Shown here one piece after another: positions 11,163-56,758 of a DNA stretch of 56,758 nucleotides. The stretch covers positions 1-56,758 of IMG/VR virus record IMGVR_UViG_3300031566_000037; one strand, 5' to 3'. The translations under genes were made by a program, and so were the position numbers. A model generated the notes under the pieces. It was not told the origin of the DNA and made no database searches. It saw only the letters and a program-made list of their open reading frames with translations. The stretch's first letter is position 1, and each line of letters begins with the position of its first letter. Origin of the DNA: a virus.

Positions 11163-11593
11163 GGCGTATGCTCTCCCTTCATGTGTTCGGCAAATGCCCA
11201 GGCAATTTGCGCAGCCATCTTCAGCGACTCACTATTTGCACTCGCGTGCGGCGAACCAGGCATTGCGACGCAGCGCAGTAGTGTTATAACCTTGGCTGCG
11301 AATTCTGTGATCTGAGGGGCGATTGTGCTGTCAACCTGCAGATATTTTTGTAACAGAATCACAAATGCCTGGCGTTGTGTGAGTCCCTGAAGAGCCGGAT
11401 CGTCTACCTGTGCTTCAGCCATCTCTGTCATAACGCGCTTATAGAAAGCCCGCGTATTGTGCATCCCGGCATGTGCCCGCCGCGATGCTTCGGCCATGGC
11501 CTGAATAGGTATCGCCTCGGCTTTAGGCACCACCTCGGGTGAATCCCCTCCCTGGACAAGAAATACGAATGGTTTATCCGGCAGTCTTATCAC
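11159..11593 (-). CDS. hypothetical protein (up to 144 aa)
   Basis: ORF ATGA-coupled to the DUF932 gene. The start codon is uncertain. Confidence 0.5.
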   Translation of the reverse strand: MIRLPDKPFVFLVQGGDSPEVVPKAEAIPIQAMAEASRRAHAGMHNTRAFYKRVMTEMAEAQVDDPALQGLTQRQAFVILLQKYLQVDSTIAPQITEFAAKVITLLRCVAMPGSPHASANSESLKMAAQIAWAFAEHMKGEHTP

Positions 11594-12665
11594 CTCCCTC
11601 TTTTGGGATCCTCCGTTGTGTACATTTTTTTATCGCCTCTCGCACATCATCCCATTGGCCATCGATCTCTTTAAGAACTTCCCCGGCCAACCCGGTTGGT
11701 AGCCCGGCAGATTGGCAGGCGCGCTCAAAGATCCCCGACATCACCACGGCACTGTCCTCATTGACCCGTGCGATTGCATCGCGTGTGGCTGCGTCCGGAA
11801 TGATCCCGGGCTTGATCAATGCGGTCAATCTGTCATCGAGCGTTTTGAGCATCGCCCCTGCGCTTACCACTTCATCTTCGAATCCCCGGCTCAATCTCTC
11901 GAGCGCCGCCACCTCTCCCTGTATCTTCTGTTTGCGCGCCTGCCGTGTCTGCCATTCATCCAGTAACACAATCAGGTCTGGCACCGCCGTGGCGAATGCG
12001 GCGACGGTATATCTTCGGCGTGGCATCGTGATATAAATGGCTATCATCTGCTGCACCGTATCGAGCGGGTACGTCTCCAACACCGGCTTCAGCGCTGCGG
12101 TATCTCGTGACCAATTGACCAAATATTTGCGCTGCTTTTTCCGCAAATGCAGATCGCGGAACGCATTGATGGCCCCCATAAGCTTATCACGTGTATACGC
12201 CTGCGCTTTAAGCGCAGGCTCGCCGCCCTTGGCGGCGGCATTATCAGCGGAGTCTTTACTGAGTATACTTCGGGTGACACCGGTGTCACTTCTAGATATG
12301 ACAATATTGTCACTTCTGAGTTCAAAAGCGAGCAGGCTGGTCACGATTATGTACAGATTCGTTTGGCCCTGCCCGCGCCGCTCCTTCGTGAGATACCCTC
12401 GCTTGACGATTTCTTGAATGTGTCTAATCACATTCCGTTCGCTTTGCCCCCTTTCTTCGGCAATGCGCGCCAAGCCCGGGTAACAAAAGGGGTCGCCATC
12501 TTCAGTCAATGACGCTTCGTGATCCCATGCGAATTTTCTCAGCACCGCATAGGTGCGGAAGGCTCCATCCGACAGATCTGTGTCTGTGACGATGACGTAA
12601 TCTATCATCACAAACCCACGCTGCGCGCGTGGCCGGTCAAACCGGATCCCTATTTTGTCCGGCAT
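11574..12665 (-). CDS. winged-helix DNA-binding protein, putative replication initiator/organiser
   Basis: ATG at 12665 preceded by GGAAGGAG. LARIAEERGQSERNVIRHIQEIVKRGYLTKERRGQGQTNLY is a typical winged helix-turn-helix. Sits beside the SSB/ATPase genes. Confidence 0.5.
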   Translation of the reverse strand: MPDKIGIRFDRPRAQRGFVMIDYVIVTDTDLSDGAFRTYAVLRKFAWDHEASLTEDGDPFCYPGLARIAEERGQSERNVIRHIQEIVKRGYLTKERRGQGQTNLYIIVTSLLAFELRSDNIVISRSDTGVTRSILSKDSADNAAAKGGEPALKAQAYTRDKLMGAINAFRDLHLRKKQRKYLVNWSRDTAALKPVLETYPLDTVQQMIAIYITMPRRRYTVAAFATAVPDLIVLLDEWQTRQARKQKIQGEVAALERLSRGFEDEVVSAGAMLKTLDDRLTALIKPGIIPDAATRDAIARVNEDSAVVMSGIFERACQSAGLPTGLAGEVLKEIDGQWDDVREAIKKCTQRRIPKEGGDKTAG

Positions 12666-42723: not shown

Positions 42724-44277
42724 TTATTTCCCAAGCGAAGTGGCTTTAAGCCCACCGCGCGTCCTCTTGCCACAGGCGCTGGTGAAAAACCAAGATGCCA
42801 TCAGGCGATCGCCTGTATGCTCAACGGGATCGAAGCGTAACATATCATCTATCCATTCTGCCGATTGATGGTTCCTGGGGATCCGCCACATACGGTTTTC
42901 GAAGTCGACAGACATCGCGCGAACGCCCAGGGTAGGATCCGCCTTGTTCTTGCCCGTAGTAAAAGGATGCAACCGGATGGCCTTGGCGAATCGTTTAATT
43001 TCATCAAGCGCCATGGAGCCTTCGGATGGCGTGTTTTTGATGATGGCTCTAAAGATCTCATCGGCGCCTCTTAGGAACTGCAACAGATAATCCTGTGCCG
43101 AATTGTTTTCCACCTCAAACAGCACAGGCTTAAAACGATCCTGAATCTGACAGAAATTCTTGATGATGTCAACAAGTCCCATCCGGCCTGCGATGATATT
43201 GAGCACCACTTTTGTCCCATGCGGATCCACGCCGCCGATAAAAAACACCGTCTCATGTGCGCCGCGCTTCTTCTTGACCGCCAGGTCAACGCCGACATAG
43301 ACCTGCAGTTCATTATCGTCATAGCGGGAGACAAAATGCCTGCCTTCGGCCTCGGCCAGTTCAACGCATGTCTCAATCGCTGCCCGGCTGAAATCATCAC
43401 TCCCGCGTTCCTTGTCGGGGATATTCTTCATCGATCGTGCATACTCGATCGAGCTGACCTCGGCGAGTCTTTCCTTGCGGCGCCACTCCGGCCAACCACA
43501 GACCTCCCCCGATGGCATGATTTCAAGATCCGGCCAGAGATCATCGTCTGCATCATAGCGTTCGACGTGATAATTTGTATTCGCGGCAGCCCAATGCATC
43601 GCGTCTTCTGCGTGCCAGGCATTGCCGATCATCCAGAGGCGCGCCAGCGCGGTAAGCCTGGAGATCACCGTGTTCTTGACATATTCAATCACCCGCTTGC
43701 GCTGGCCCCGGGTTAGAGTGTTTTCGAAGTCGAGGATATCATCTAAGATAGCCAGGTCGAGGCGCGCTCCCATGATGTTCCCGTTCACCCCGACCGCCTC
43801 TACCGTATAATCCTTATTCGACAGATCCTTTCGCTCAACAACGATGTGACTGTCCTGCCAGCCCATGACTCGCCCGCGCCTGCGTTCAGGACGCACGTGT
43901 GGAAACACCGCCTGATAGCGTGCGTTATAGCCAATCGTCTGGCGGATCACGCCGAGAAATTTATGCGCCTGGCCAGCCGTATTGGAAACCAGCGCTGCGC
44001 GGATGTTGGTGTTCTTGCCGATCTCCCAGCTCAGGCGGCACACGGAAATTTGCATCGACTTCCCGTGCTCAACCGGAGCGAAAATAACCAGCCGCCGATA
44101 TTTATTGCAGAGATCCTGCCACTCGTCATGAAGGGGTTGTGCCTTCCAGCCGAAAACGTACTCGCCGAAGGTCGCCGGATCCTGCCTGGCTACCTGGATC
44201 GTGTCGCGTTCGTAAGCGCCGAGGTCGGCCTCCAGTAGATCCTGATCGTGCTCAATTTTCCCGGGGGAATCTGTCAT
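42724..44277 (-). CDS. terL: terminase large subunit
   Basis: ATG at 44277 (ATGA overlap). Walker A-like motif FAPVEHGKS. C-terminal nuclease-like region. Confidence 0.9.
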   Translation of the reverse strand: MTDSPGKIEHDQDLLEADLGAYERDTIQVARQDPATFGEYVFGWKAQPLHDEWQDLCNKYRRLVIFAPVEHGKSMQISVCRLSWEIGKNTNIRAALVSNTAGQAHKFLGVIRQTIGYNARYQAVFPHVRPERRRGRVMGWQDSHIVVERKDLSNKDYTVEAVGVNGNIMGARLDLAILDDILDFENTLTRGQRKRVIEYVKNTVISRLTALARLWMIGNAWHAEDAMHWAAANTNYHVERYDADDDLWPDLEIMPSGEVCGWPEWRRKERLAEVSSIEYARSMKNIPDKERGSDDFSRAAIETCVELAEAEGRHFVSRYDDNELQVYVGVDLAVKKKRGAHETVFFIGGVDPHGTKVVLNIIAGRMGLVDIIKNFCQIQDRFKPVLFEVENNSAQDYLLQFLRGADEIFRAIIKNTPSEGSMALDEIKRFAKAIRLHPFTTGKNKADPTLGVRAMSVDFENRMWRIPRNHQSAEWIDDMLRFDPVEHTGDRLMASWFFTSACGKRTRGGLKATSLGK

Positions 44278-45269
44278 CGCCCAACGTACCCTAACCCCTC
44301 GAGCCGTTTTAAAACCTCCGGATCCGCAGTCGGCCACGGCAGGGACGGCCCGGGTTGTTTAATGGAAAACCGGCGCAGAATCGTATTGAGCATCATGTGG
44401 TGATTGGCAGGTTCATAGACTTCACGAACGGCCAGCTGGATCGGCAATGGTGTCCGTGCGATGAGAGGAACCCGGATGAGTTCGGGAAACATCCCATAGG
44501 CATGAATACAAAAGCCCCGCTCGCCTAAGCCTTCACCGTGGTCGCCGGTAACGAAGATCTCGGCATCAGGAAAGGCGTCAAAGAGTTCAGGCATCTTCGA
44601 ATCGAGAAACCGGATCGCCCCATCATAAGCAGCGATGTAACACGCCGGATGGTTGGCGATGCGTTTGCCGAAATACCGCGAGCCCTCCGCTGTCCACTCC
44701 TGGCTATCCTCGCCGCACCACTCGATCAGCGCGCCGATCTTGTCGAGGATCTTCATGCCCGGCATCGCCATCGGCCCCCAGCGCTTCTTGTGGGTTTGCC
44801 AGAGAGCATCCCCGACAAAGCGCTGGTGGTTGCCCCAGGGCTGATACATCGCATGCGTCTCCTGCAGGTGCAGCACCCCGAAAAACTCCGGGCGGCCTCG
44901 ATGCGCAGCGATAAAGGCATCGATCATCTGATTCGCCGTTGGCCTCTTGCCGCGCCGGTGGTACCACGCAGGCCAGGATTTGAAGTCGAAAACGCTCGTG
45001 GCCATGCGCTGGCCTGCCGGTGTCGCGTTGCCGCTGTAGAATGATGTGTGGATCTTGTTGCGGGAGATCGTCAGTGCATAGTTGGCGATCCGCTGGAACG
45101 TCCCCTTAGTCGCCGAGGCGTTAGACTTAAAATCGTTCCACATCAAACCCTTGGCTCCGGTTACGACGGAATCCAAGAACGGAGTCGTCTCGCGATCGTA
45201 CCCATAACAATGAATATGATCGCTCCGCAAACACTCGATCATGACAAGAATAACCTGTGTTTTATTCAT
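44274..45269 (-). CDS. alkaline-phosphatase-superfamily (sulfatase-like) hydrolase/transferase
   Basis: 331 aa. Motifs VILVMIECLRSDHIHCYGYD and IFVTGDHGEGLGERG. No CxPxR formylglycine motif seen. ATGA overlaps at both ends. Confidence 0.7.
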   Translation of the reverse strand: MNKTQVILVMIECLRSDHIHCYGYDRETTPFLDSVVTGAKGLMWNDFKSNASATKGTFQRIANYALTISRNKIHTSFYSGNATPAGQRMATSVFDFKSWPAWYHRRGKRPTANQMIDAFIAAHRGRPEFFGVLHLQETHAMYQPWGNHQRFVGDALWQTHKKRWGPMAMPGMKILDKIGALIEWCGEDSQEWTAEGSRYFGKRIANHPACYIAAYDGAIRFLDSKMPELFDAFPDAEIFVTGDHGEGLGERGFCIHAYGMFPELIRVPLIARTPLPIQLAVREVYEPANHHMMLNTILRRFSIKQPGPSLPWPTADPEVLKRLEGLGYVGR

Positions 45270-46126
45270 CTGAGATCCTCTATCGATGGCACTTCAAAAT
45301 CACAACCCTCTTCATCTGCACCATCGTCTCCGGCGTCATTATCAGCCGCTCGGTCAAGTCCTGTGGCTGCGAAACTAACATCAAGGTGTCCGCCGTTAGA
45401 TCCGGGATTGTCAGGATCGGGATCCCCCACAGGCTCTTCGGCGACCTCCTCGGCGGTAGCAGGGATGGCCTGGGTATCGCCCCCGGGCGGGACTTCAAAA
45501 AGGACTCCATGAAGGTCTCCTTCCTGCGGCGCATCCTTCACGCCACGCAATGCCATTTGCGTCCGCGCATCGGTTACGGTCGTTACTTGCTCCCGGCCCA
45601 GCAGCGTGCGGAGTTGTCGCAGGTGTTTGCGCACTGCCGGAATGTTGTCCGCCGGCACCTCCGCGAATTCCCCCTTGCCGCCTCCAGGCGACGCGTTGTT
45701 CGTTGTCTGATTGATAAAGGCAAAAACCGGCGACTGCTCGGTCTTGCCGAAACCCAAGATCATCGCCTGCAACCGGATCGCCTCGAGCACCCGCGCGTCA
45801 GCCGCTGTGCGTGCATTGTAGTCGGGTTCGGTCACTAACTGCGGTTTCTCCTCCTTGCCCTGGCGCACCTCCCGAACCTTCACGGCCTTGTCGGCGATCC
45901 TATTTTGCCGAGTAATTACCGTCCCGATCCTCGTGAGCATCTCGCCCACGGCACAGCCGTCAATGATCAGGAGATCGGTATAGCGCTTATAAATCATCTT
46001 CAGATCATTAACCACCGTCGCCCGGGTTACCTTCACCTCCTCGGCAATCTGCGTTGGGTTCGCCCCCCGCGCGGCAAGGCTCAAAACCTGCTTTTCACGT
46101 TCCCAGCGTTCCTGCCTATCCGACAT
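45266..46126 (-). CDS. putative terminase small subunit (HTH, acidic tail)
   Basis: ATG at 46126 lies 8 nt after GGAGGG. LSLAARGANPTQIAEEVKVTRATVVNDL is a helix-turn-helix. Assigned from position upstream of terL. Confidence 0.5.
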   Translation of the reverse strand: MSDRQERWEREKQVLSLAARGANPTQIAEEVKVTRATVVNDLKMIYKRYTDLLIIDGCAVGEMLTRIGTVITRQNRIADKAVKVREVRQGKEEKPQLVTEPDYNARTAADARVLEAIRLQAMILGFGKTEQSPVFAFINQTTNNASPGGGKGEFAEVPADNIPAVRKHLRQLRTLLGREQVTTVTDARTQMALRGVKDAPQEGDLHGVLFEVPPGGDTQAIPATAEEVAEEPVGDPDPDNPGSNGGHLDVSFAATGLDRAADNDAGDDGADEEGCDFEVPSIEDLR

Positions 46127-46805
46127 CCGTATCGCCCTCCGCAAGACCGACTGCCCCCAGGTACCCTCGCACCATTACCATCAGCGCCTTGCCCCGGGAA
46201 ACGCCTCCGGCTAACGCGCTGGCCCGCGTCAAGGCCTCCTCGAGCAGCGCCGGATCGTCCTCCACCACGAAGGAGACGATCTTCGGTCGCGTCCGCCCCG
46301 CCTCCTCCTCCTCGGCATCCAGGTCGACCTCTAAGGCATCGGATACCTTCGAAAGTTCAAGCGCATCCCGGAGCTCCGCCTCGCTGTAGGGGAGATGCGT
46401 CTCGAGGTCGTCGATCGATAGATCCGTCGACAGATCCTGAACCAGCTTCGCAAACAATGCTTGCACCGACTGCCCCTTGAGTTCGTTCAGGTTGATCGAT
46501 AGGATCTTCGCTTCACGATCGCCCAGGTCGACCACGCTGCAGGGGACGGCCGTGTAGTCTAACTCCTGCGCCGCCATCCAGCGATGATAGCCACCGAGGA
46601 TCTCCCAGCGCCCATCGTGCGGACGCACCACCAGCGGCTCTACAAAGCCCCGGGCTTTTATGTAAGCCCGGAGTTTCGCATATGTCTCCGCGTCCATGCG
46701 ATTCGGATTCCATGGATTAGGTACCAAATCGCCGATCGGAATTTCCCGAATATCCATCTTGCCCTCGCTCTCGCCCCGAGCCATGTCCACCACGGCCAGA
46801 GCCAT
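46116..46805 (-). CDS. ParB-like nuclease domain protein
   Basis: IPIGDLVPNPWNPNRMD...PLVV...ILGGYHRWMAAQ matches the ParB N-terminal domain. The true start may be 46757 (GAGGG RBS). Confidence 0.85.
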   Translation of the reverse strand: MALAVVDMARGESEGKMDIREIPIGDLVPNPWNPNRMDAETYAKLRAYIKARGFVEPLVVRPHDGRWEILGGYHRWMAAQELDYTAVPCSVVDLGDREAKILSINLNELKGQSVQALFAKLVQDLSTDLSIDDLETHLPYSEAELRDALELSKVSDALEVDLDAEEEEAGRTRPKIVSFVVEDDPALLEEALTRASALAGGVSRGKALMVMVRGYLGAVGLAEGDTDVG

Positions 46806-46918
46806 TCAATTCGCAATGCGTCAAGCAGATCCTGCTCGCTGATAATGTAATCGATAAACCGATCGGCCTGAGCATAGGTGATGAAGGTTTCGGCCTGGCC
46901 CAGCGGTAGACCCAACAT
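46658..46918 (-). CDS. questionable ORF (86 aa) overlapping the ParB start
   Basis: The N-terminal ~38 aa look protein-like. The remainder is the out-of-frame, Trp/Arg-rich reading of the ParB 5' end. Confidence 0.3.
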   Translation of the reverse strand: MLGLPLGQAETFITYAQADRFIDYIISEQDLLDALRIEWLWPWWTWLGARARARWIFGKFRSAIWYLIHGIRIAWTRRHMRNSGLT

Positions 46919-47082
46919 CACGCCCTCACCCTTCTCGCGGCCTCGAGGATCCCGCAGATCTGTGCAATCGCAACCCGCGTCATTAAAGTTTCCAAACGCC
47001 CGACCGCTTCCTCGATCCGATCAAGAAACTCCTGCAGGCCCGGCGCCGTAACTGTCACATTCATCTTCCCCACTCGTGCCAT
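46918..47082 (-). CDS. hypothetical mini-protein (54 aa)
   Basis: Below the track cut-off. ATG at 47082 preceded by AAGGAGGGCGAG. Confidence 0.4.
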   Translation of the reverse strand: MARVGKMNVTVTAPGLQEFLDRIEEAVGRLETLMTRVAIAQICGILEAARRVRA

Positions 47083-47106
47083 CTCGCCCTCCTTGCATCG
47101 CCCCGC

Positions 47107-48126
47107 CTACCTCACGCGGATCACATACTCCACATTTGTCGCCCGATGCCGATCCGATGCCAGCGCTGCCAGGTGTGTGCATTTGATCTCCTCCACCTCT
47201 ATATCTTCACGGAACTTCCGGATGCTGTCAACTAGCTCCGCGATCGGAAACCCCTGGTTGCCACAGGATAGAACCCAGGTGGGAAACTTCTCGCAGGCTA
47301 TAAATAAATCCTCCAATGCCGATCGCGCCTCCTTCGTCGAGAATACACTGCGCGGCGCCTTCGATATCGCGCCCGCCAAGATCGAATCCAACACCCGAAG
47401 GCTCTGCTCATAACTCTGCGTGCCCACATACGGCGGATCCAGGTAGACCACGTCCCCCTCTACTCGATCGAGAAAGTCGAAGACGTCCAGCTGGTGCGCC
47501 TCGTTCTGAAGCCCGTTGGTGAATACCCCCTTGTTTACATACGACAGCACCCGCCTGGCAACCGTCCGCGGATGCCCCGCTATGTTCCGCGCCAAGATGT
47601 CACGAACGTAGTTCTGATTCATCTCCTCCCACTTCCCGTCCTCCGCCTGCTGGATGATCGTCTTCGCCCCGAAGTTCCCCGCCGGACGCATCCGTAAAAT
47701 GTACTTGATCAAAAGAAGCAGAAGCATCCACCGCTTGACACCCTCCGCTCGATGCGCCCAATAAAATGCCCGATCGAGAAAACGCGCGTGGCGTGTCGTG
47801 AATACCCCATAGGCGAAATGGTCGGCAATGAAGGTCTGTGGCTCCGGGGGCTTCACGAAAAGCCGATCGATGTCTAACTCGTCTAAGCGTACACGATCGT
47901 TTGCAATCAATGCCTGGCCGACAACATGACTCCGAAATGCAATGCCGTTCGCCAGTACCCGATAACCCCGAGCCTTCCCGAAAAGTGAGACGCTGCCGCC
48001 CCCCATGAAGGCATCCACCAGAACGGGGGCTTCCGAGGGCGGCGGGATCCACTTGAAGATGTGACCGAGTAGACGACGCTTGCCGCCCAGGTAGAGCGGC
48101 AGTGCCCGAAGCCTCGACCAGGCCAT
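47107..48126 (-). CDS. D12-class N6-adenine DNA methyltransferase (Dam-like)
   Basis: Motifs YLGGKRRL, FMGGGSV (FxGxG) and VYLDPPYV (DPPY). ATG at 48126 coupled to the upstream stop (TGATG). Confidence 0.85.
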   Translation of the reverse strand: MAWSRLRALPLYLGGKRRLLGHIFKWIPPPSEAPVLVDAFMGGGSVSLFGKARGYRVLANGIAFRSHVVGQALIANDRVRLDELDIDRLFVKPPEPQTFIADHFAYGVFTTRHARFLDRAFYWAHRAEGVKRWMLLLLLIKYILRMRPAGNFGAKTIIQQAEDGKWEEMNQNYVRDILARNIAGHPRTVARRVLSYVNKGVFTNGLQNEAHQLDVFDFLDRVEGDVVYLDPPYVGTQSYEQSLRVLDSILAGAISKAPRSVFSTKEARSALEDLFIACEKFPTWVLSCGNQGFPIAELVDSIRKFREDIEVEEIKCTHLAALASDRHRATNVEYVIRVR

Positions 48127-48374
48127 CAGCGATTGCCCCCAAGATCCCTGCAGATCGCGTTCGGACAATTGTGCACCAGGCCACTCCCGATGTGAAACTC
48201 GGTCGGCTCAAAAAACGTCACGTTGATCATGACGCCATCGCCCAAGGCAAGCAGCCGAATGAGCCGGTGCCGGACAGTGCGCAATGTCAAAGGGTTCCAG
48301 TGACGCGAGATCCAGCCGCCGAGGCGCCAGAGCCGTCTGTGGCGCGAGCGCAAACACCAGGTGAGAAAATCCAT
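48126..48374 (-). CDS. hypothetical basic protein (82 aa), first gene of the late block
   Basis: ATG at 48374 lies 7 nt after AAGGAGG. Confidence 0.5.
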   Translation of the reverse strand: MDFLTWCLRSRHRRLWRLGGWISRHWNPLTLRTVRHRLIRLLALGDGVMINVTFFEPTEFHIGSGLVHNCPNAICRDLGGNR

Positions 48375-48475
48375 GACGCGCCTCCTTGAGAGATTGAGGT
48401 CGATGAGCACCCGCTGGAAGCCCACCGACCTCACCCAAAACGGAGTGTGACGAGGATGAGTCGTCAGCGACGACC

Positions 48476-48504
48476 ACTCTACCATGGCCCGGGAGTGACG
48501 ACAA
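48476..48504 (-). promoter_or_regulatory. candidate sigma70-like promoter with AT-rich UP-like tract
   Basis: Minus strand reads gaatttttata TTGTCG, then a 17-nt spacer (tcactcccgggccatgg), then TAGAGT. Confidence 0.4.
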
Positions 48505-48763
48505 TATAAAAATTCACCCCGGCGTTCCCGTGTGTGAAAAATGACGACCAAGACAAGACACCCGGGCGATCCTGCCCGTGATCAGAGGTGGGGGATAGAG
48601 CAAAATTCGTGCCATCGATTTACGCTAATTTGCATTCTGCGCTGCCGGCCTTGCATGTTTTCGCACAGATTCTGCTTTGCTGTGAGTGCCCTTGCTGATC
48701 GTTGCCGACCCTTGTCGATCAAACTGATCATTTGAGCAATCGCTGTCGTCATTTGACCGGGTT

Positions 48764-48780
48764 TTGCACATGCTGTGCAA
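48764..48780. promoter_or_regulatory. Perfect palindrome TTGCACA-tgc-TGTGCAA (operator-like)
   Basis: 7-bp arms read directly from the sequence. Lies within the spacer/-10 of a plus-strand TTGACC-17 nt-TGCAAT promoter-like motif at 48753..48781. Confidence 0.5.
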
Positions 48781-48972
48781 TCAGTGTGGAACGTTGTGTT
48801 CTACAGTCACGGTGTTTGCTGATTGTGACACCTGGACAGCTGCTGTCCGCTTTTGCAGATAGCGAGCTTTAGAGTCACGCTCCTTGCACATGCTTGCGTA
48901 TGCGTGTGGAATCGCACTGATTTCTTGGTCAGGTTTGGCAGATTGTGTGCTTTGGTGTGGGTGATTTCGCAG

Positions 48973-49432
48973 GTGAGTGGACAGAGTGGTGCCCTGGTGC
49001 TGCTCGGTGCGGGCGAAGTGGGCTGCGGAGAGTGGAATTTGCACTCACATTTCCACAGAAGTGGGCTGCGGAGAGTCGTATGTGGGTGCTTTTTCAGTCG
49101 GAAGTGGGGCGATAGTGGCAGGGTCAGTGATGCTCCCGGGGTGATGGTGGAGCCATGGTGGGCTGCGCGGAGTCGATGTGACACTTGATTTGAGGGCAAA
49201 GTGGGCTGCGAAGACTGTGATTATGACTCACATTCCACCGTCAGTGGGCTGGAATAGTGGGTGTTATCACCCAGGACACGACTGATGCATGACTGTGTGT
49301 GTCCGCCAGGCGGCGCCGGTGGGACGCCGTCCCAGGATATGACTCATTATTACACTCATGTTTCACTCGAAGTGGGCTGCGCTGACTCAAACGTGAGTGC
49401 TTTTTCAGCCGAAAGTGGGCTGCCCGCCCGGG
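48973..49432 (+). repeat. Phased array of ~18-bp direct repeats (iteron-like), core GTGGGCTGCGgAGaGTsG
   Basis: Core starts at 48973 (degenerate), 49018, 49061, 49104, 49158, 49201, 49244, (49319 degenerate), 49372 and 49415. The spacings are mostly exactly 43 bp. Confidence 0.8.
49257..49279. repeat. 23-bp repeat GTGGGTGTTATCACCCAGGACAC, copy 1
   Basis: 22 of 23 bases identical to 49915..49937. Contains the inverted repeat GGGTG-n4-CACCC. Confidence 0.8.
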
Positions 49433-49443
49433 GAAGTCATGAC

Positions 49444-49461
49444 TGTCACATGCCTGTGACA
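49444..49461. promoter_or_regulatory. Perfect palindrome TGTCACA-tgcc-TGTGACA (operator-like)
   Basis: 7-bp arms. Related in form to the 48764 palindrome (shared CACATGC-TGTG core). Adjacent to the GTCATGAC palindrome at 49436-49443. Confidence 0.5.
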
Positions 49462-49811
49462 CATCCTCTGGTGGGTGAAAACCCGCAGATATTGGAGAGT
49501 TCTTTTGAAGGCAATGTGGTAGCCTGTCTAACTTTAGCGATCCAGAGACGCGAGCCTGCTGGCGCTTCCCGGGTGCCCGGGGGCAGCCGCGAGCTCCCGG
49601 ATCCTCCAGACAGCACACCTGTAATCGCCCGTAACGGCGGCCTCTCCCGCATGATCGCATAAAAGGCATTATGTCAACTTGGCTGAAATGCGCAGGTTTT
49701 GCACCTGTTGATACTATGACATCCCCGGGTGTGTTCCCCGCGCGGCGAACATCCCGCGAGCGCCGCCGGACATGTCCACAATCCGTCCACACACTGTGGA
49801 TAACCGACCGG

Positions 49812-49877
49812 AGTGACCACTTTTGAAGTCATATGCGACTGTCGAGCGACTGTCGAAAGTGACCACTTTTAGAGTCA
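49812..49877. repeat. Composite repeat: AGTGACCACTTTTGAAGTCA, 2x GCGACTGTCGA, AGTGACCACTTTTAGAGTCA
   Basis: 20-mers at 49812-49831 and 49858-49877 differ at 2 positions. They flank a tandem 11-mer at 49835-49856. Confidence 0.8.
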
Positions 49878-49914
49878 GCAAGCAGTCATGCCGGAGTCAT
49901 GGATCAGTCATGCG

Positions 49915-49937
49915 GTGGGTGTTTTCACCCAGGACAC
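49915..49937. repeat. 23-bp repeat GTGGGTGTTTTCACCCAGGACAC, copy 2
   Basis: See 49257..49279. Confidence 0.8.
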
Positions 49938-50131
49938 ACCCTCACAGTCATCCTGTGAGTCATCCTCGCAGGATCCCCGGGGTAGCCCCGGAAACGAAGG
50001 CCACAGAGCGCCCGTGTGCGTCGACCGCAAGCCCTCGCGGCTCCCAGGTCGTATCCCCGGCGATCGCCTCACACACGCGACGTGTGCGCGAACCTGCCCC
50101 CGGCATGCCCTAGTGTATGGGTGAAATAAGC

Positions 50132-50165
50132 AAAAAAAAGACCGACCGGAGGGTGCTCTTCCCGG
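50132..50165 (-). terminator. Possible terminator of the early block (T8 tract)
   Basis: On the minus strand a short GC stem (CCGG...CCGG, only 4-5 bp) is followed by tcggtc and TTTTTTTT (50132-50139). It lies about 80 nt after the stop at 50221. The stem is weak. Confidence 0.35.
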
Positions 50166-50220
50166 GCAGAGGCAGATTTACCGCCCTAACCATATGGCCC
50201 ATATAGCCCCCGCAATCGCC

Positions 50221-50601
50221 CTATTTGCCTACCTTCGCCGCACGGCAGCGCTGCAGCGTCTCTGCGTCCATCCGAACCTTCCGCCCGTTCAGCGTTCTAT
50301 CACATATATCACACGGCATAAGCAGGCTTCGGCTAGACGCGAACGTATCATCCTCCAGGTGAAACTTCACTCTACACGCCACGCAGACGATCGCGACTCT
50401 CTCTTCGATTTCGCCACGCCATCTGTGGTGTCTCATCCCTGCCCATTTGTGCACTATGCCATCGATCGTGCCCGGGGTAACCTCGAGGATCCCGGCGTAA
50501 TCGATAATGAGTTGTCGTTTGGGGTCTTCGGAGAATGGTGCTTCGAGGTCGCAGATACAGCACACCGCCTCTGCGAGAGCGCATTTATCATCACAAGCCA
50601 T
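50221..50601 (-). CDS. Cys-rich protein (126 aa)
   Basis: ATG at 50601 lies 7 nt after GGAGG. Multiple CxxC-like pairs (CDDKC, CCIC, CVAC, CDIC). Confidence 0.6.
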   Translation of the reverse strand: MACDDKCALAEAVCCICDLEAPFSEDPKRQLIIDYAGILEVTPGTIDGIVHKWAGMRHHRWRGEIEERVAIVCVACRVKFHLEDDTFASSRSLLMPCDICDRTLNGRKVRMDAETLQRCRAAKVGK

Positions 50602-51764: not shown

Positions 51765-51913
51765 CAAAGGCTCCATATGCCAGCGAGAAATCGTCCCAGG
51801 TAGACAGGCCAGATGAACAGCGCCCACAGGATCGTCCAGCCTTTGAGTGACAGCAGTCCCACGGTGCCGAGCCATCCGATGGCCCAGAGCGGACCAGAAG
51901 TTTCAGTCTTCAT
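51764..51913 (-). CDS. two-helix membrane mini-protein (49 aa)
   Basis: Below the track cut-off. ATG at 51913 preceded by AAAGGAGAAAGAG. Sequence MKTETSGPLWAIGWLGTVGLLSLKGWTILWALFIWPVYLGRFLAGIWSL. Confidence 0.55.
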   Translation of the reverse strand: MKTETSGPLWAIGWLGTVGLLSLKGWTILWALFIWPVYLGRFLAGIWSL

Positions 51914-51954
51914 CTCTTTCTCCTTTCATGTTCAGACACGCCAGCGCCAGGCCA

Positions 51955-52161
51955 TCAGCGGCACCTCAAACGGGCGAGGACGCCTTGTTGGCGGCGTTCC
52001 TCTATCTCGCGCTGGCGGTGTTCCCGCCCGATCAGGCATCCGATAACTGCGATCAGCTCATCCCTGGTCATATCCTTGACCGGACGCCCCATGAAGTGAG
52101 TGCGGATGCCAGCCATATACCACTCCCAGAACGCTTTAGCCTTACGAATCGGAGTCAACAT
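51955..52161 (-). CDS. hypothetical protein (68 aa)
   Basis: ATG at 52161 preceded by GGGAGGAGG. Confidence 0.55.
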   Translation of the reverse strand: MLTPIRKAKAFWEWYMAGIRTHFMGRPVKDMTRDELIAVIGCLIGREHRQREIEERRQQGVLARLRCR

Positions 52162-52192
52162 CAGGCGCCTCCTCCCATCTCTCGCTCGAGGT

Positions 52193-52348
52193 CTATGATA
52201 TCCCTCTCGATCTCCTCGAGGCGACGCGATCGGTCGCCGCCCCGGAATAGAGACCAAACAGCAGGTCGCGGCCAGCATTTGCTCGCACCTCGAACAGGAT
52301 GGCTTTAAGTATCTTCAAGATCTTTCTCTCGTTGGTGGTCACGGCCAT
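52193..52348 (-). CDS. hypothetical mini-protein (51 aa)
   Basis: Below the track cut-off. ATG at 52348 preceded by GGAGAGGAGGCG. Confidence 0.45.
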   Translation of the reverse strand: MAVTTNERKILKILKAILFEVRANAGRDLLFGLYSGAATDRVASRRSRGIS

Positions 52349-52589
52349 CGCCTCCTCTCCTCCGGGCGGCCGTCTTTTTCAGCCACGCACACATGCGCTG
52401 CCATGCCGACGGGGACGTTGCGTACTCCGGACAGGTATAGGCATAGGGACAGTCCAGCCGGAGCGCGCCGCCCTTATCCTGGCCTGTCAGCCCTGAGCGC
52501 GGGCACCGCCATTTGCCTTCGAAATAGACCCGGTTCCCGCTGCGCCTGGTCACGAGTTCAATCCCATTCTGCCAGCGACAGATTTTCAT
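52305..52589 (-). CDS. Cys-rich protein (94 aa)
   Basis: ATG at 52589 (ATGA overlap). Confidence 0.45.
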   Translation of the reverse strand: MKICRWQNGIELVTRRSGNRVYFEGKWRCPRSGLTGQDKGGALRLDCPYAYTCPEYATSPSAWQRMCAWLKKTAARRRGGDGRDHQREKDLEDT

Positions 52590-52804
52590 GGCGGCCACGC
52601 AGTGTAGTCTGGCTCATCGACCGTAGCCTTGACGTGCCGGAAAGCCTTGGCGGCATCGATACATGCCGGGTTATCGTTGCAATAGCGGACGTTCTGCGTC
52701 ATCGTCCCGGGCGGCAGGTCATGCTCCACGCTGGTGTCCGATGAGAACACGCTGATCTTCTCATCCGGCCTGACCGCACCGCAGATATGGCATCGCCATT
52801 TCAT
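52586..52804 (-). CDS. zinc-ribbon protein (72 aa)
   Basis: Cysteine pattern CHICG...YCNDNPAC. Confidence 0.5.
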   Translation of the reverse strand: MKWRCHICGAVRPDEKISVFSSDTSVEHDLPPGTMTQNVRYCNDNPACIDAAKAFRHVKATVDEPDYTAWPP

Positions 52805-54362: not shown

Positions 54363-54754
54363 GACTTAGGATCCAGCACCTTCGCCAGCCAGAGGCGGTC
54401 CTTAACGGTTACAGCCTCGGCGCGTGGCGTATGCAAGATCGCGCGCAGCGCCTTCCGCACCGCTTCGATCCCATGCAGCCGCCCCTTCAGTTTCGATGTG
54501 TCCAGGTGCTTCGCCTTATTCGCACGGATCTCCGTCTGGATCGCGGTGACCTCGTGCCGCAGGGATTCCTTGAGCACAATCAACTGGCGCCGGATGAAGA
54601 ACCCCTTAGTCACCCCGGTCGAAACCGCTGCCGTCGCCACAACCTGGGAGCGCACGAGGATACCCATCTGAGCCATGCGATCGATCGCGTCGGCCAGCAA
54701 GCGCACCTCATTCTGTCGATGCTGCTCCAGGTTCATTGCCTTCAGCCTATTCAC
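54359..54754 (-). CDS. hypothetical protein (131 aa)
   Basis: GTG start 7 nt after GGAGGG. Confidence 0.55.
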   Translation of the reverse strand: MNRLKAMNLEQHRQNEVRLLADAIDRMAQMGILVRSQVVATAAVSTGVTKGFFIRRQLIVLKESLRHEVTAIQTEIRANKAKHLDTSKLKGRLHGIEAVRKALRAILHTPRAEAVTVKDRLWLAKVLDPKS

Positions 54755-54766
54755 CCTGTCGCCCTC

Positions 54767-54937
54767 CTATCCGGCTTTAAATTCATGGTATGCCGTAATC
54801 CAGTCAGGATACCCGCGCGACTCTGCCTCCCGAGTAGCAAGCCCCTCTATGAGAGACTGGCTCTCACCCTCAAGCGGCCAGGGATCCGACACCATTATTA
54901 GATCCAGAAATGCTCGGAACTCTTTATCCTCCATCAT
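54767..54937 (-). CDS. hypothetical acidic mini-protein (56 aa)
   Basis: ATG at 54937 preceded by GGAAGGAGGC. ATGA overlap. Confidence 0.5.
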   Translation of the reverse strand: MMEDKEFRAFLDLIMVSDPWPLEGESQSLIEGLATREAESRGYPDWITAYHEFKAG

Positions 54938-55098
54938 GCCTCCTTCCACCACTGGCGGCACGTCTCGCAGTAGTAGACCTCCGTCCCATGGGCGCCGAGC
55001 ATCATGAGCATCGGCTCCTCGCATTCAGGACACAGCTCCTGGTCGACCGCTACCGCCACGATCGCAAGTTCGACCGGCTCAAAGTTAGGAAGTGACAT
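54934..55098 (-). CDS. zinc-ribbon mini-protein (54 aa)
   Basis: ATG at 55098 preceded by GGAGAGGAGA. Cysteine pairs CPEC...CETC. Confidence 0.5.
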   Translation of the reverse strand: MSLPNFEPVELAIVAVAVDQELCPECEEPMLMMLGAHGTEVYYCETCRQWWKEA

Positions 55099-55312
55099 CG
55101 CCGTCTCCTCTCCGGAGATATGGCGGCACGCACCGCGGATCCCCGTCCTTCGACCACAGCGGCGCTGGCGGCACAGGACAGAATGCCCGCCATATCTCCG
55201 CCCGCACCCAGCGCCTGAGCGCCGGGTACTTCCGATCATGGGGATCCTCCGGCAGCAATCGGATCTCCGCATGCGCTACAATGGCCTTGAGTATTGCTAT
55301 CTGAAGATCCAT
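55085..55312 (-). CDS. hypothetical protein (75 aa)
   Basis: TAATG coupling. Confidence 0.4.
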   Translation of the reverse strand: MDLQIAILKAIVAHAEIRLLPEDPHDRKYPALRRWVRAEIWRAFCPVPPAPLWSKDGDPRCVPPYLRRGDGDVTS

Positions 55313-55536
55313 TATGTCATAAACCTCATGCGGCGCCGGTAGAACTCCCGCGCCTCATCGTAAAGTACCTCGCCGATCTCAGCGGCCTCCTCACAGTGGT
55401 GCTGGCTATCGCCCCAGGTAATGCATTCGATTGTCCCCGCGTCCTCATTGAGCAATATCACCACCACCTTGTTACCGCCGAACTGTGTCGCAAACCCCTT
55501 GGCTGCCTGGATCCGTGGCGTTAGATTCCCGGCCAT
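55312..55536 (-). CDS. hypothetical protein (74 aa)
   Basis: RBS GGAGAGGAGA. Confidence 0.55.
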   Translation of the reverse strand: MAGNLTPRIQAAKGFATQFGGNKVVVILLNEDAGTIECITWGDSQHHCEEAAEIGEVLYDEAREFYRRRMRFMT

Positions 55537-56025
55537 CTATGTCTCCTCTCCGGACGCCTCCTCAAGCCCACCATCGGGATCCCCCTCGGCCTCGCCTTCA
55601 TTCAGGGATAAGCCCTGGCTCTCGCCCGCGCCTGCCGCCCCGTCGTCGGCATCGGGAGCGGCATCGCCATAAGGCAGCTGTGGCGCTTCGATCGCAATCG
55701 TAACCATCACCCGCTCGCCGAGCATGCCGATGAGGTTTTGGACATCGGTTTCAGAATAATCCCCCCGCGCCAGGGTAACCGTAAGGGAATGCTCCCGCAT
55801 CCCGCCCCTGATCTTTGCCTTCGGGTGTACGTCCTTAAGGATGAATTCCGTTCTCACGCTGGCCATTGTCCCTGATCCTTCCAGTATCGGATGATGATAT
55901 TTGATAGGCTTCGCTTTAATGTCCTGCGCCACGCAGACCAGGCAAAGGCCACCCGGGGTGGCGCCATCCCGTCCGCATCGGCTGCAGGCTTTGTCCATAT
56001 CTGCCCTGACCACTAATCGTTCCAC
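55537..56025 (-). CDS. hypothetical protein with N-terminal zinc ribbon and acidic tail (~163 aa)
   Basis: GTG at 56025 lies 6 nt after GAGGTG. Cysteine pairs CSRCG...CLVC. Confidence 0.5.
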   Translation of the reverse strand: MERLVVRADMDKACSRCGRDGATPGGLCLVCVAQDIKAKPIKYHHPILEGSGTMASVRTEFILKDVHPKAKIRGGMREHSLTVTLARGDYSETDVQNLIGMLGERVMVTIAIEAPQLPYGDAAPDADDGAAGAGESQGLSLNEGEAEGDPDGGLEEASGEET

Positions 56026-56035
56026 GTGAAACACC

Positions 56036-56284
56036 TCAGAATAGTTCGCCCTGTCCCTTTCGCTTGGCTGCAGGTTCCGCATGCGCGCGTGGCTCCGGCG
56101 GTATCGCCGCGGCCTTCTCGCGGACAGCCTTTGCCTGCGCCTTCCGGCAGGCTATTGTCCGGTCGACCTGCTCCGCCAGGGCGCCATCAAAACACATCCA
56201 GCACCTGGGCACCCCACCAAACACCACCATGGCATATGCCCCGCATCGACACCGGAGTGTCTTGTTACCGTACTGGTTGCTCAT
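56036..56284 (-). CDS. zinc-ribbon protein (82 aa)
   Basis: ATG at 56284 preceded by GAGAGG. Cysteine pattern CRCG...CWMC. Confidence 0.5.
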   Translation of the reverse strand: MSNQYGNKTLRCRCGAYAMVVFGGVPRCWMCFDGALAEQVDRTIACRKAQAKAVREKAAAIPPEPRAHAEPAAKRKGQGELF

Positions 56285-56510
56285 GTCTGAGCCTCTCGAT
56301 CCGTTCCATCTCATCACGCCAGGCACGCCGCACCATTCTCAGCCGATGCTGATCGGAGAAGCGCTCCTCGAGGAATTCGATATAGAGCCGCCGCCAATCG
56401 AGCGTGCGCAGAAGCATGTCGATCTTGCCGCGGTTATGGTTCCACACCGTAAATCCGGCAGTACCATAGATCGCCCCGAGTGCGGCGACCACTATCAATG
56501 CAATGTTCAT
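56265..56510 (-). CDS. N-terminally membrane-anchored protein (81 aa), first gene of the early block
   Basis: ATG at 56510 preceded by AAAGGGGAGA. Transmembrane segment MNIALIVVAALGAIYGTAGFTVW. Confidence 0.55.
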   Translation of the reverse strand: MNIALIVVAALGAIYGTAGFTVWNHNRGKIDMLLRTLDWRRLYIEFLEERFSDQHRLRMVRRAWRDEMERIERLRHEQPVR

Positions 56511-56631
56511 CCGTCTCCCCTTTCTATGGGGCTGGCCGCAGGCGCCGTGAGATCCCGGCACCTACGACTCCTCAACAACGCTCGCCGCCCGGAGAGCTTT
56601 GTCGCCATGGCAGAGCGAACTCACACCCGCC

Positions 56632-56758
56632 ATGGCCAAGCGCCGCCTATCCCACTCCCCCTGTCGCTACACGCACCCCGAAGGGCTGATCGATCCGCCT
56701 CACTCAGCAGGGAGTGAAAACCTATCGAGTTGGCATTGTACAATCGCCCACTTTGTCC
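56632..56758. repeat. Terminal direct repeat, right copy (identical to 1..127)
   Basis: Exact 127-nt match to the window start. Confidence 0.95.

Follow-up and report, generated by a model that had tools for sequence, protein, structure and literature searches.

A non-coding region of helically phased repeat arrays at the head of a phage late operon and its possible role in replication

The longest non-coding stretch in the 56.6-kb genome of an uncultivated phage, about 1.85 kb at positions 48375-50220 (hereafter the desert), was filled with arrays of short repeats set in phase with the DNA helix. We propose that the desert is a non-coding, cis-acting protein-binding region with three functional layers. 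In the distal layer, a T8 tract would mark where the upstream operon ends, and the proximal layer would be the late promoter together with a structured leader, from which the methyltransferase-ParB-TerS-TerL operon would start. Between them would lie about 1.5 kb of site arrays that follow the helix, with periods of 10-11 bp or of four turns (41-43 bp). Because of this phasing, proteins bound to the arrays would be aligned on one face of the helix, and the DNA could be wrapped or stacked in a large nucleoprotein complex. The middle layer would most likely be replicative: we infer a second or auxiliary origin, or a loading or titration locus for the O-like initiator of the phage, probably assisted by host DnaA, and we give this reading a probability of about 35%. 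An auxiliary rather than a primary role was assigned because a lambda-type origin was well supported elsewhere, in the initiator gene, which would place the primary origin 19-36 kb from the desert. More broadly, the desert most likely belonged to a known class of platforms that control replication or packaging, of which it would be an unusually large example.

Non-coding status and boundaries of the desert

The window, i.e., the whole stretch of 56,758 nucleotides that was analysed, was a complete and circular genome assembly, as indicated by an exact 127-bp overlap between its ends. Nearly all of its genes were on the minus strand, and a distant-mode DNA similarity search of GenBank phages returned no match to it. 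Codon-position GC periodicity was lost at ~48540-50160, and no longer run of this kind was present anywhere in the genome. The 120 substitutions between the desert and the related contig L001 (~93% identical) were distributed evenly over the three codon phases (41/40/39), as opposed to 3/5/26 in the neighbouring gene and 4/4/12, 9/6/19 and 7/4/19 in other flanking genes. The eight largest ORFs of the desert had neither Pfam nor PHROG matches. Lacking codon periodicity, a third-position substitution bias and homologues, the desert did not behave as protein-coding DNA. Another low-periodicity stretch (51840-52740) contained small genes and was therefore rejected as a second desert.

The lower boundary was the ATG at 48374 that starts an 82-codon ORF missing from L001 and from a second relative, L002. 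At the other end, the last gene of the upstream (early) operon encoded a Cys-rich product of ~127 aa and ended at 50221. The first-pass annotation had described this region as the only long stretch without a credible gene, lying between the early genes and the methyltransferase-ParB-terminase genes and holding at least five repeat or palindrome families. The periodicity loss, the phase-neutral substitutions and the empty Pfam and PHROG searches all agreed with it; the upstream block was indeed on the other side of the desert, and more than five families were present (Table 1). The T8 tract that it took as one boundary was found. Its other boundary, the candidate late promoter, had hexamers that were retained in L001, but the true boundary was the ATG downstream of it.

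Gene callers placed spurious ORFs in the desert, which may serve as a warning about such calls in similar regions.

Table 1. Features of the desert and the candidate origin in the initiator gene
Feature	Position	Strand	Remarks
Candidate lambda-type origin	12271-12317	-	two 19-bp repeats, each with a perfect palindrome GTGACA-N4-TGTCAC
Late-operon leader	48375-48470	-	strong hairpin at 48395-48433; Shine-Dalgarno AAGGAGG at 48380-48386
Candidate late promoter TTGTCG-17-TAGAGT	48476-48504	-	8/12 consensus matches
Degenerate 10-bp and 41-bp periodic array	48590-48960	-	autocorrelation lags 41 and 10
Iteron array	49016-49430	+	eight 18-bp iterons (R)AAGTGGGCTGCGGAGAGT, one orientation
23-bp repeat GTGGGTGTTATCACCCAGGACAC with dyad GGGTG-N4-CACCC	49257-49279		family D6
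Segment missing from the L001/L131/L132 lineage	49424-49576		contains the 60 bp of lowest GC in the desert
Conserved block, GCCAAGTTGACATAATGCCTTTTATGCG on minus strand, and 20-bp palindrome TGTTCCCCGCGCGGCGAACA	49620-49751		palindrome (I12) at 49732-49751
DnaA-box-like cluster	49773-49803		TGTCCACA 49773-49780; CGTCCACA 49784-49791 (11-bp step); inverted TGTGGATAA 49795-49803
Motif A (TGACTYnAAAAGTGGTCACT), two copies	49812-49877	-	around a perfect 2 x 11-bp tandem GCGACTGTCGA
Four (CA)TGACT units	49872-49913	-	11-12 bp apart; family D7
GC-rich (~70%) block with several short palindromes	49930-50131		best conserved part of the desert
T8 tract and weak hairpin before it	50132-50172	-	A8/T8 at 50132-50139; may terminate the upstream (early) operon

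Late promoter and leader

The candidate late promoter scored under the threshold of the promoter scanner. Its hexamers and their spacing were intact in L001, where four substitutions fell in the spacer, and L002 had TTGTGC-18-TACTGT at the equivalent position. The adjoining leader was strongly structured: the fold of 48376-48520 had an energy of -60.7 kcal/mol (z = -3.83), none of 200 shuffled sequences was as stable, and only one substitution separated the leader from that of L001 in ~115 bp.

These features could be accommodated by a transcription switch or insulator, in which early regulators, such as the Cys-rich protein ending at 50221, would use the arrays as operators or roadblocks, and the late operon would stay silent, or shielded against read-through of early transcription, until a late activator comes into play. 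The position of the region between an operon end and a promoter whose -35 element was weak, the structured and highly conserved leader (z = -3.8), and the sites of uniform orientation that preceded the promoter in the window, in L002 and in a further relative, L126, were in line with this possibility. However, promoter control takes tens to a few hundred bp, not 1.5 kb, the outer arrays were over 1 kb away from the promoter, and no regulator was found among the upstream genes, for which Pfam, PHROG and NCBIfam were blank. We regarded the switch as unlikely for the desert as a whole. The earlier suggestion of a main regulatory switch was supported for the proximal 130-150 bp (promoter and leader) only.

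The iteron array

The main array was composed of eight 18-bp copies on the same strand that shared the core AGTGGGCTGCG and started at 49016, 49059, 49102, 49156, 49199, 49242, 49370 and 49413. At 10.7 bp per turn, the spacings corresponded to 4.02, 4.02, 5.05, 4.02, 4.02, 11.96 and 4.02 helical turns, and autocorrelation peaked at a lag of 43. The spacers between the iterons were themselves repeated and alternated between two types, which produced a higher-order unit of 86 bp. All six genomic copies of AGTGGGCTG were located in the desert, on one strand. The iteron AAGTGGGCTGCGGAGAGT was asymmetric, with no internal inverted repeat. In seven copies compared with L001, the 11-bp core had no substitutions, while ~5 were expected at 6.5% divergence; this comparison of sequences indicated that the core is under purifying selection.

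An iteron-type origin is expected to carry at least three direct repeats of the same orientation in helical phase, and the array did so. It is also expected to adjoin an A+T-rich unwinding element, and here no clear one was detected in the desert: the lowest GC contents of 60-bp windows were 43% (49490-49549) and 45% (48500-48559), and the former segment was deleted in the L001 lineage. Cumulative GC skew, which had been proposed as a means of locating the origin, displayed no more than a local bump, because all genes share one strand.

Other repeats and sites

The proximal array (48590-48960) was homologous to a 41-bp tandem repeat of L002, whose units matched 48784-48752 and 48950-48930 with 88-96% identity. 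Arrays phased at 11 bp were found in the desert as well. The 23-bp repeat GTGGGTGTTATCACCCAGGACAC had a second copy at 49915-49937 (96% identity), and both belonged to a TCACCC/CACCCA family. TCACCC was present in eight copies against 0.98 expected (about eight-fold, P about 9e-6), and the desert held 9 of the 16 CACCCA copies, 7 of the 15 TGACTC copies and 9 of the 43 CCCGGG sites of the genome.

The block at 49620-49751 was nearly invariant in L001 and partly conserved in L002 (653-667). Both copies of motif A were ~90% conserved in L002 (404-425 and 544-566), where the (CA)TGACT units also had a counterpart, three TGACTCA spaced by 11 bp. The GC-rich block differed from L001 by only 2-3 substitutions in ~175 bp, and bases 1-20 of L002 aligned with 50020-50001. 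The T8 tract was kept in L001; its hairpin was unexceptional (fold z = 0.15) and was missed by a consensus terminator scan. The segment missing from the L001/L131/L132 lineage adjoined the eighth iteron, the distal end of which differed in that lineage. The contigs L131 and L132 were 99.9% identical.

As for DnaA, a direct pair of GTCCACA with 11-bp spacing was retained in L001 and L002, in the latter as part of an inverted block. The perfect box at 49795-49803, the sole TTATCCACA in the genome, was downgraded as a strong mark of an origin: it was absent from L001, which reads GGTGCATAA there.

A long or multi-unit non-coding RNA, which had been among the first suggestions, or RNA decoys such as mimics of CRISPR repeats, might be imagined from the regular spacing of the repeats and from the plus strand of 48600-49300, which was G- and T-rich, the reverse of the rest of the genome. 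However, Rfam 15 gave no match at the gathering score in the whole window and none at E<=1 in 48200-50400, and a search for tRNA and tmRNA found none. Fold energies were ordinary except in the late leader; the GC-rich block, for example, had z = -0.39 and +1.14 on its two strands. Moreover, the modules were inverted or rearranged between relatives, the supposed spacers were repeated too, and no conserved promoter or terminator bracketed the arrays. We considered an RNA locus highly improbable; inversion and rearrangement of modules fit protein sites, not an RNA or a gene.

An origin-like element in the initiator gene

The winged-helix protein encoded at 11574-12665, pointed out by the first-pass annotation as a candidate DNA-binding factor, proved to be an O-like replication initiator. 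Just past its winged-helix domain, the gene contained two repeats plus a partial third (Table 1), followed by an A+T-richer stretch. No substitutions separated ~12190-12360 from the contigs L134 and L135. The element was also conserved in L216, a lineage that came from an AAA_24 search, despite 51% protein identity, and DNA identity to L216 peaked there (77% against a gene average of 57%). From these sequence comparisons, a lambda-type origin inside the initiator gene appeared well supported. The earlier proposal that the desert is the replication origin was weakened accordingly, and a second or auxiliary origin became the best single reading of it. Since a good candidate was already available in the initiator gene, a second origin in the desert was not required.

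Several links between the two loci pointed to the initiator as a ligand of the desert. The half-site of the palindromes in the initiator gene was TGTCAC(C/T)(C/T), and the same core was enriched in the deserts: [GT]TCAC[CT][CT] occurred eight times in that of the window against 1.25 expected (P about 5e-5) and 14 times in L002 against 0.3, and T[GT]TCAC[CT] occurred nine times in the L126 gap against 0.37, the shared TCAC core being short and chosen partly after the data were seen. The desert and the 52-bp element of the initiator gene had more 6-8-mers in common than did 95-99% of windows of equal size, and the units GATTGTCACC of L126 matched the origin half-site GATTGTCAC of L216. On the other hand, the initiator sites were conserved within their own gene and only a short core (TCACyy, GAAGTG) was common to the desert: the full 10-bp origin half-repeat AGAAGTGACA was not enriched in the desert, and the initiator gene contained nothing like the main iteron AAGTGGGCTGCG beyond GAAGTG. 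Searches of solved structures with TerL, TerS and the initiator yielded nothing useful.

Conservation and replacement of the arrays in relatives

At the corresponding place, two more distant relatives had a gap without genes that was filled with repeats, namely other helically phased arrays; in L126, these were blocks of about 8-11 units with a period of exactly 10 bp. Scans of IMG/VR with motif A and motif C recovered only a known relative or chance matches without similarity to the window. Conservation in relatives, another of the checks proposed at the outset, was divided: the gap, its phasing and short motifs were kept, as was the iteron core in L001, but the arrays differed almost completely between lineages, with modules inverted or rearranged relative to L002.

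Such turnover might reflect repeat expansion by slippage and unequal recombination in a tolerated gap, with little or no function and with only the promoter and the terminator being of importance. The 150-bp segment was dispensable in L001, and the overall divergence of the desert from L001 (~6.5%) was near the third-codon-position rate of the neighbouring gene, as this scenario would predict. It is difficult to reconcile, however, with the unsubstituted iteron cores, with strict phasing and a single orientation in three lineages, with motif A, the TCACCC sites and the GTCCACA pair being shared by lineages with only ~70% protein identity, and with the pressure for compactness on phage genomes. 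We judged largely functionless expansion to be quite unlikely.

For the same reason that a primary origin is not needed in the desert, i.e., because the initiator has its own in the initiator gene, the desert could instead be a dedicated organiser locus, neither origin nor pac, in the form of a fast-evolving 1-2 kb mosaic of phased arrays. Several phage and host proteins would join there in one large wrapped complex, which might tie late transcription and packaging to the end of replication and early transcription, or tether the genome within the cell. To our knowledge, no such class of cis-element has been described for tailed phages, and we deemed it unlikely.

A packaging site as an alternative

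The small terminase TerS was a protein of 286 aa with an N-terminal HTH, encoded at 46126-45266. If the desert was a pac platform, TerS would oligomerise on the phased sites, wrap the DNA and set TerL for the first headful cut; a feedback of TerS on the late promoter, as in SPP1, is also possible. This alternative, less likely than the replicative reading but next after it, had several points in its favor. TerS and TerL are encoded in the operon at the head of which the desert lies, and the portal and Mu-F/SPP1-gp7-like head genes suit headful phages. Between the window and L002, TerS was the most diverged of the late proteins (50-55% against 70-87% identity), parallel to the fast-changing arrays. 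From what is generally known of TerS rings, the L126 blocks (~8-11 units of 10 bp) had the size expected for wrapping one ring. In addition, L002, L128 and the distant L188 ended in or beside the region, and L188 had tandem repeats directly upstream of its TerS gene. However, the contig ends are equally explicable by repeats defeating the assembler, and the assemblies of the window, L001 and L126 crossed the region unbroken. A search for a pac-like repeat cluster inside the TerS and ParB genes found only two-copy chance matches.

Comparison with SPP1 illustrated both sides. The pac of SPP1 (pacL-pacC-pacR), to which the small terminase binds, is located at the head of the late operon and overlaps late promoters (PMC6316719). 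The desert was likewise at the head of the late operon. Unlike SPP1 pac, which spans a few hundred bp and runs into the TerS gene, it was 1.85 kb long, with many unrelated repeat families where known pac/cos sites do not exceed 300 bp, and a distance of 2.2 kb, which included the methyltransferase and ParB genes, separated it from the TerS gene.

A ParB-loading site as an alternative

A further possibility was that the ParB-like protein, the gene for which lay 1.6 kb downstream, uses the desert as a loading array or a centromere-like one. In the F plasmid, sopC consists of 12 direct 43-bp repeats, each with a 16-bp inverted repeat for SopB (PMC3177203). The desert resembled it in its direct repeats of the same 43-bp period and in the nearby ParB-family gene, the product of which aligned with Noc/Spo0J over the N-terminal and central domains; CCCGGG was also enriched in the desert. 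Nevertheless, the traits that characterise a sopC-type centromere, namely a dyad site, a DNA-reading HTH with a ParA partner, and co-occurrence of site and gene, all appeared to be missing at the sequence level. The iterons had no dyad symmetry, in contrast to SopB sites, the predicted DNA-reading helix was acidic (EAELRDALEL), and no SopA/ParA-type partner was found among the scanned ORFs, a set that took in only part of the small ones. Many elements, including L121, L123 and L124, had the methyltransferase-ParB cassette without a desert, and the L126 gap lacked an adjacent cassette. We found it very unlikely that the desert serves ParB.

About 110 loci of ParB relatives from metagenomes and genomes were also surveyed for a ParB link by periodicity and repeat scans, and the L001 contig alone had a comparable desert upstream, on which ground the ParB link was dropped. 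A palindrome, ATTAGACCnnGGTCTAAT, near the ParB genes of eight loci was considered as a parS candidate and was absent from the window.

Comparison with known replication systems

The replicative reading, be it as a second or auxiliary origin or as a locus where the initiator binds, had several precedents. Phage SPP1 has one origin in its initiator gene and a second that is intergenic; these two, oriL and oriR, are kilobases apart, are both made of direct repeats and are both bound by gp38 (PMC6316719). Our phage was similar in that a TCAC-type core was common to the repeat element within the O-like gene and to the repeats of an intergenic region. However, oriR of SPP1 contains the boxes of oriL and an A+T-rich unwinding element, whereas here the main iteron differed from the repeats in the gene, and the desert had no clear unwinding element and was several times larger.

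In the PLE satellite of Vibrio cholerae, a non-coding region (NCR) carries four families of repeats; they include the iteron of RepA, the gene for which (repA) is elsewhere (PMC7145576). The desert was also a large non-coding region with several repeat families and an initiator encoded elsewhere. In PLE, unlike the desert, the initiator is of the RepA_N type and semi-palindromic iterons surround a poly-A tract. The function of the NCR was demonstrated via deletion and gel shift (PMC7145576), whereas that of the desert is a proposal.

The resemblance to the lambda origin concerned the element at 12271-12317, outside the desert: its repeats with internal dyads lay in the linker-coding part of the O-like gene and were followed by A+T-richer DNA. 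Lambda has four iterons, compared with two and a partial third here, and no initiator gene surrounds the desert.

Short clusters of initiator-binding repeats at a second site far from the origin are familiar from P4 (ori/crr) and P1 (incA), where they are needed in cis or control replication, though the initiators (the P4 alpha primase-helicase and P1 RepA) differ from that of our phage. The TTTCACC/TGTCACC units here are similar to the P4 octamer TGTTCACC, a short likeness that could be due to chance. Few tailed phages have large non-coding regions filled with repeats, and those regions that have been studied contain origins, packaging signals or copy-control sites.

The clade can be considered as a natural experiment in which position and helical phasing were kept while the arrays were replaced, so that specificity swaps between DNA-binding proteins and their sites are directly testable. 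The practical gain is modest: in phage genomes from metagenomes, origins and packaging signals could be annotated better. We know of no cis-acting phage elements from the FCB group; relatives of this phage occurred in MAGs of that group (Eisenbacteria, Zixibacteria, Latescibacteria and Gemmatimonadota).

Organization of the gene desert

The gene desert at 48375-50220 was a real feature of this uncultivated phage: non-coding DNA with multiple arrays of candidate protein-binding sites, placed where the upstream and late operons meet. Phages are known to carry elements of this kind, although this one is unusually large and modular, and its function is putative. The ends of the window (1-127 and 56632-56758) were identical over exactly 127 bp, which indicated a circularly closed complete genome assembly with a true length of 56,631 bp; 127 is a frequent maximum k-mer size. 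Almost all genes lay on the minus strand, and the replication/recombination module was far from the desert. The ORFs scanned yielded neither an integrase nor a ParA. An FCB-group host was suggested by MAGs of Eisenbacteria, Zixibacteria, Latescibacteria, Gemmatimonadota and related groups, which carried relatives of the methyltransferase and the ParB-like protein.

Coordinates of the features discussed (window positions unless a locus is named)
Feature	Position	Strand	Remarks
Small-gene block	last gene ends 50221	minus	upstream of desert; function unassigned
A8/T8 tract	50132-50139
Four CATGACT units			11-12 bp spacing; side toward upstream operon
Two TGACTYnAAAAGTGGTCACT copies (motif A)		minus	flanking a perfect 2 x 11-bp tandem; side toward upstream operon
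GTCCACA site cluster; 20-bp palindrome			side toward upstream operon
GC-rich block			side toward upstream operon; most conserved part of desert
Iteron starts	49016, 49059, 49102, 49156, 49199, 49242, 49370, 49413	plus
10-/41-bp periodic region	48590-48960		promoter-ward
Likely late promoter	48504-48476	minus	TTGTCG-17-TAGAGT
82-codon ORF	48374-48126	minus	first ORF after desert
D12-class adenine methyltransferase	48126-47107	minus
ParB-like protein	46805-46116	minus
HTH protein, probably small terminase (TerS)	46126-45266	minus
Sulfatase-fold protein	44274-45269	minus	between small and large terminase genes
Large terminase (TerL)	44277-42724	minus
Portal, Mu-F-like, capsid/protease genes		minus	after TerL in minus-strand order
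AAA_24 ATPase	14129-13083		replication/recombination module
DUF669 gene, PD-(D/E)XK nuclease, RusA			replication/recombination module
O-like initiator	12788-11574		404 aa, HTH_36 domain; same module
Two 19-bp repeats	12271-12317	minus	candidate primary origin
Called desert ORFs	L131 4898-5364; L132 2627-3093	opposite	87 and 67 aa
ATTAGACCnnGGTCTAAT sites	L031 7320, L033 1289, L039 3939, L042 6911, L043 2152, L047 1904, L062 5865, L096 7326		ParB-bearing loci

The first-pass annotation had found no credible gene in the desert, and this was borne out. Codon-position GC periodicity was lost from ~48540 to ~50160, a longer run than any other of this kind in the genome. Against L001 (IMG/VR 3300024433_000035), a relative ~93% identical to the window across the desert, the 120 desert substitutions were distributed 41/40/39 over the three codon phases, versus 3/5/26 in the methyltransferase gene, 4/4/12 in the ParB gene, and 9/6/19 and 7/4/19 in two upstream genes. 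Searches of the eight largest desert ORFs against Pfam and PHROGs gave no matches. Gene callers nonetheless placed two ORFs here in public contigs; since these lacked the codon signal, they were most likely false calls.

The boundaries proposed earlier fared differently. The T8 tract was present, but the hairpin before it was weak in the fold analysis and the consensus scan called no terminator there. The late promoter was accepted as likely because both hexamers and their spacing were unchanged in L001, where four substitutions fell in the spacer, and because L002 (a relative from Logan SRR26080961) had TTGTGC-18-TACTGT at the equivalent position. The leader after the promoter was much more stably folded than its shuffled counterparts (z = -3.83) and nearly invariant relative to L001. 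The suggested regulatory switch explained the proximal 130-150 bp (promoter and leader) well; as a purely regulatory account of the whole desert it was unlikely, since the other 1.5 kb was left unexplained. A non-coding RNA locus, also suggested, was poorly supported and hardly plausible.

A 248-bp insertion (48127-48374) held the Arg/Trp-rich 82-codon ORF with its own Shine-Dalgarno sequence, and the stop of this ORF overlapped the methyltransferase start. L001 and L002 lacked the insertion, and in both of them that same ribosome-binding site directly serves the methyltransferase gene.

Repeat arrays

The main array consisted of eight 18-bp iterons, (R)AAGTGGGCTGCGGAGAGT, and contained all six genome copies of AGTGGGCTG. 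Their spacings of 43, 43, 54, 43, 43, 128 and 43 bp corresponded to 4.02, 4.02, 5.05, 4.02, 4.02, 11.96 and 4.02 turns of 10.7 bp, so that all eight sites would face one side of the helix. The spacers were of two alternating types, forming an 86-bp higher-order unit. Relative to L001, the 11-bp iteron core had no substitutions in seven copies where ~5 were expected. Functionless repeat growth might apply to parts of the desert, but it does not account for these invariant cores and their phasing, and we considered it quite unlikely. The periodic region nearer the promoter was homologous to a 41-bp tandem repeat of L002. TCACCC occurred eight times in the desert versus 0.98 expected, and the desert held 9 of the 16 genome copies of CACCCA, 7 of 15 of TGACTC and 9 of the 43 CCCGGG sites.

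GATC was over-represented genome-wide (576 sites vs 393 +/- 19 in dinucleotide-preserving shuffles), and the phage's own D12-class methyltransferase was Dam-type; the desert had 11 GATC sites, below the genome average.

Conservation in relatives

L001, L131 and L132 formed a single lineage that was ~93% identical over the desert and lacked 49424-49576 and the 82-codon ORF. The contig of L002, whose late proteins were 50-87% identical to those of the window, began within the corresponding region, which leaves at least 1.8 kb without genes ahead of its methyltransferase gene. It shared with the window motif A (twice), the GTCCACA pair (inverted in L002), TGACTCA triplets at 11 bp, the 41-bp unit, and TTCACCCA, present as six sites in a single orientation. 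Its dominant arrays, about ten tandem 41-mers and many GAAGCTYC palindromes, were unlike those of the window. A third lineage (L126, L127 and L138; TerL 64% identical) had no adjacent methyltransferase-ParB cassette and retained a gap of 920 bp without genes, which separated the small upstream genes from the late block. This gap contained ~36 units (GATTGTCACC, TGCTTTCACC, GATTATCTGG) at exact 10-bp spacing in one orientation, with autocorrelation peaks at lags 10, 20 and 30. No comparable gap was seen in more distant TerL relatives. Across relatives, conservation extended to the location, its gene-free state, the phasing of the sites with the helix, their uniform orientation and a short TCAC(C) core; the arrays as such were not conserved.

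In L188, a distant AT-rich TerL relative, tandem repeats filled a non-coding contig end (1-820) directly upstream of the TerS gene; they comprised four 35-bp units, (GTTAA)n and (GGAACA)7.

A TerS/pac platform would fit the location in front of the packaging operon, the grouping of 10-bp units into blocks of 8-11, the fast divergence of TerS and the ending of relatives' contigs at this region. However, the desert was several times bigger than any known pac site and the TerS gene was 2.2 kb away. We ranked this reading second, and less likely than a replication role. The 43-bp period was the same as in F sopC (PMC3177203), as a ParB centromere might have it, but the iterons were without dyad symmetry, the ParB-like protein had an acidic predicted recognition helix, no ParA turned up among the ORFs scanned, and cassette and desert occurred apart, the cassette being widespread without any desert. 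A centromere was thus very unlikely.

The cassette (window 46116-48126; L121-L125, L088-L115) was located in mobile elements and at prophage edges of FCB-group MAGs, and its genes frequently overlapped stop to start. The ParB-like protein kept the N-terminal ParB fold. Eight other ParB-bearing loci shared an 18-bp palindrome, ATTAGACCnnGGTCTAAT, accompanied by extra half-sites; it was located ~700 bp beyond the ParB gene, in a short non-coding stretch immediately preceding the following gene. The palindrome, which was absent from the window, resembles an operator or recognition site belonging to that sub-clade.

Candidate origin and its link to the desert

The two 19-bp repeats lay in the linker-coding part of the O-like initiator gene, right after the winged-helix domain. 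Each contained a perfect palindrome, GTGACA-N4-TGTCAC, and more A+T-rich DNA followed. Compared with a relative with 95% protein identity, ~12190-12360 had no substitutions while the gene ends were variable. The initiator of L216, another relative, was 51% identical in protein, with both palindromes at the same place and DNA identity highest there (77% vs 57% for the whole gene). The gene-internal arrangement was the same as in lambda, and on this sequence evidence the element is a well-supported candidate for a lambda-type primary origin. It lessens the need for the desert as "the" origin, the role suggested at first; a second or auxiliary origin, or an initiator-binding control locus, was instead our first-ranked, if tentative, reading of the desert (probability about 0.35).

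The desert still appears linked to the initiator-gene element. The palindrome half-site TGTCAC(C/T)(C/T) had its core in common with the enriched desert sites, although this core is short and the patterns compared were partly picked after the data were seen. In 6-8-mers shared with the 52-bp initiator-gene element, the desert exceeded 95-99% of equal-sized windows, and the L126 unit GATTGTCACC matched the L216 half-site. The full half-repeat AGAAGTGACA was not enriched in the desert. Besides this shared core, a replication role was favored by the iterons, by the GTCCACA pair conserved across three lineages, and by precedents: SPP1 has oriL within the initiator gene and an intergenic oriR (PMC6316719), and in PLE the non-coding region carries four families of repeats, the iteron being one (PMC7145576). 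On the other hand, the desert had no clear unwinding element, its A+T-richest segment was dispensable (missing in L001), and a perfect DnaA box was lost in L001.

Other observations

The sulfatase/phosphoethanolamine-transferase-fold gene occupied an unusual site for such an enzyme; this placement was kept in L002, L119 and L128. A 36-bp tandem repeat (38358-38464; three copies, 76% matches) within a 598-aa capsid/protease-region gene presumably coded for an Ala/Pro-rich repeat. The otherwise 93-96% identical contig IMGVR_UViG_3300024433_000035 lacked ~2 kb of the upstream block (54606-56650), an indel in accessory early genes.
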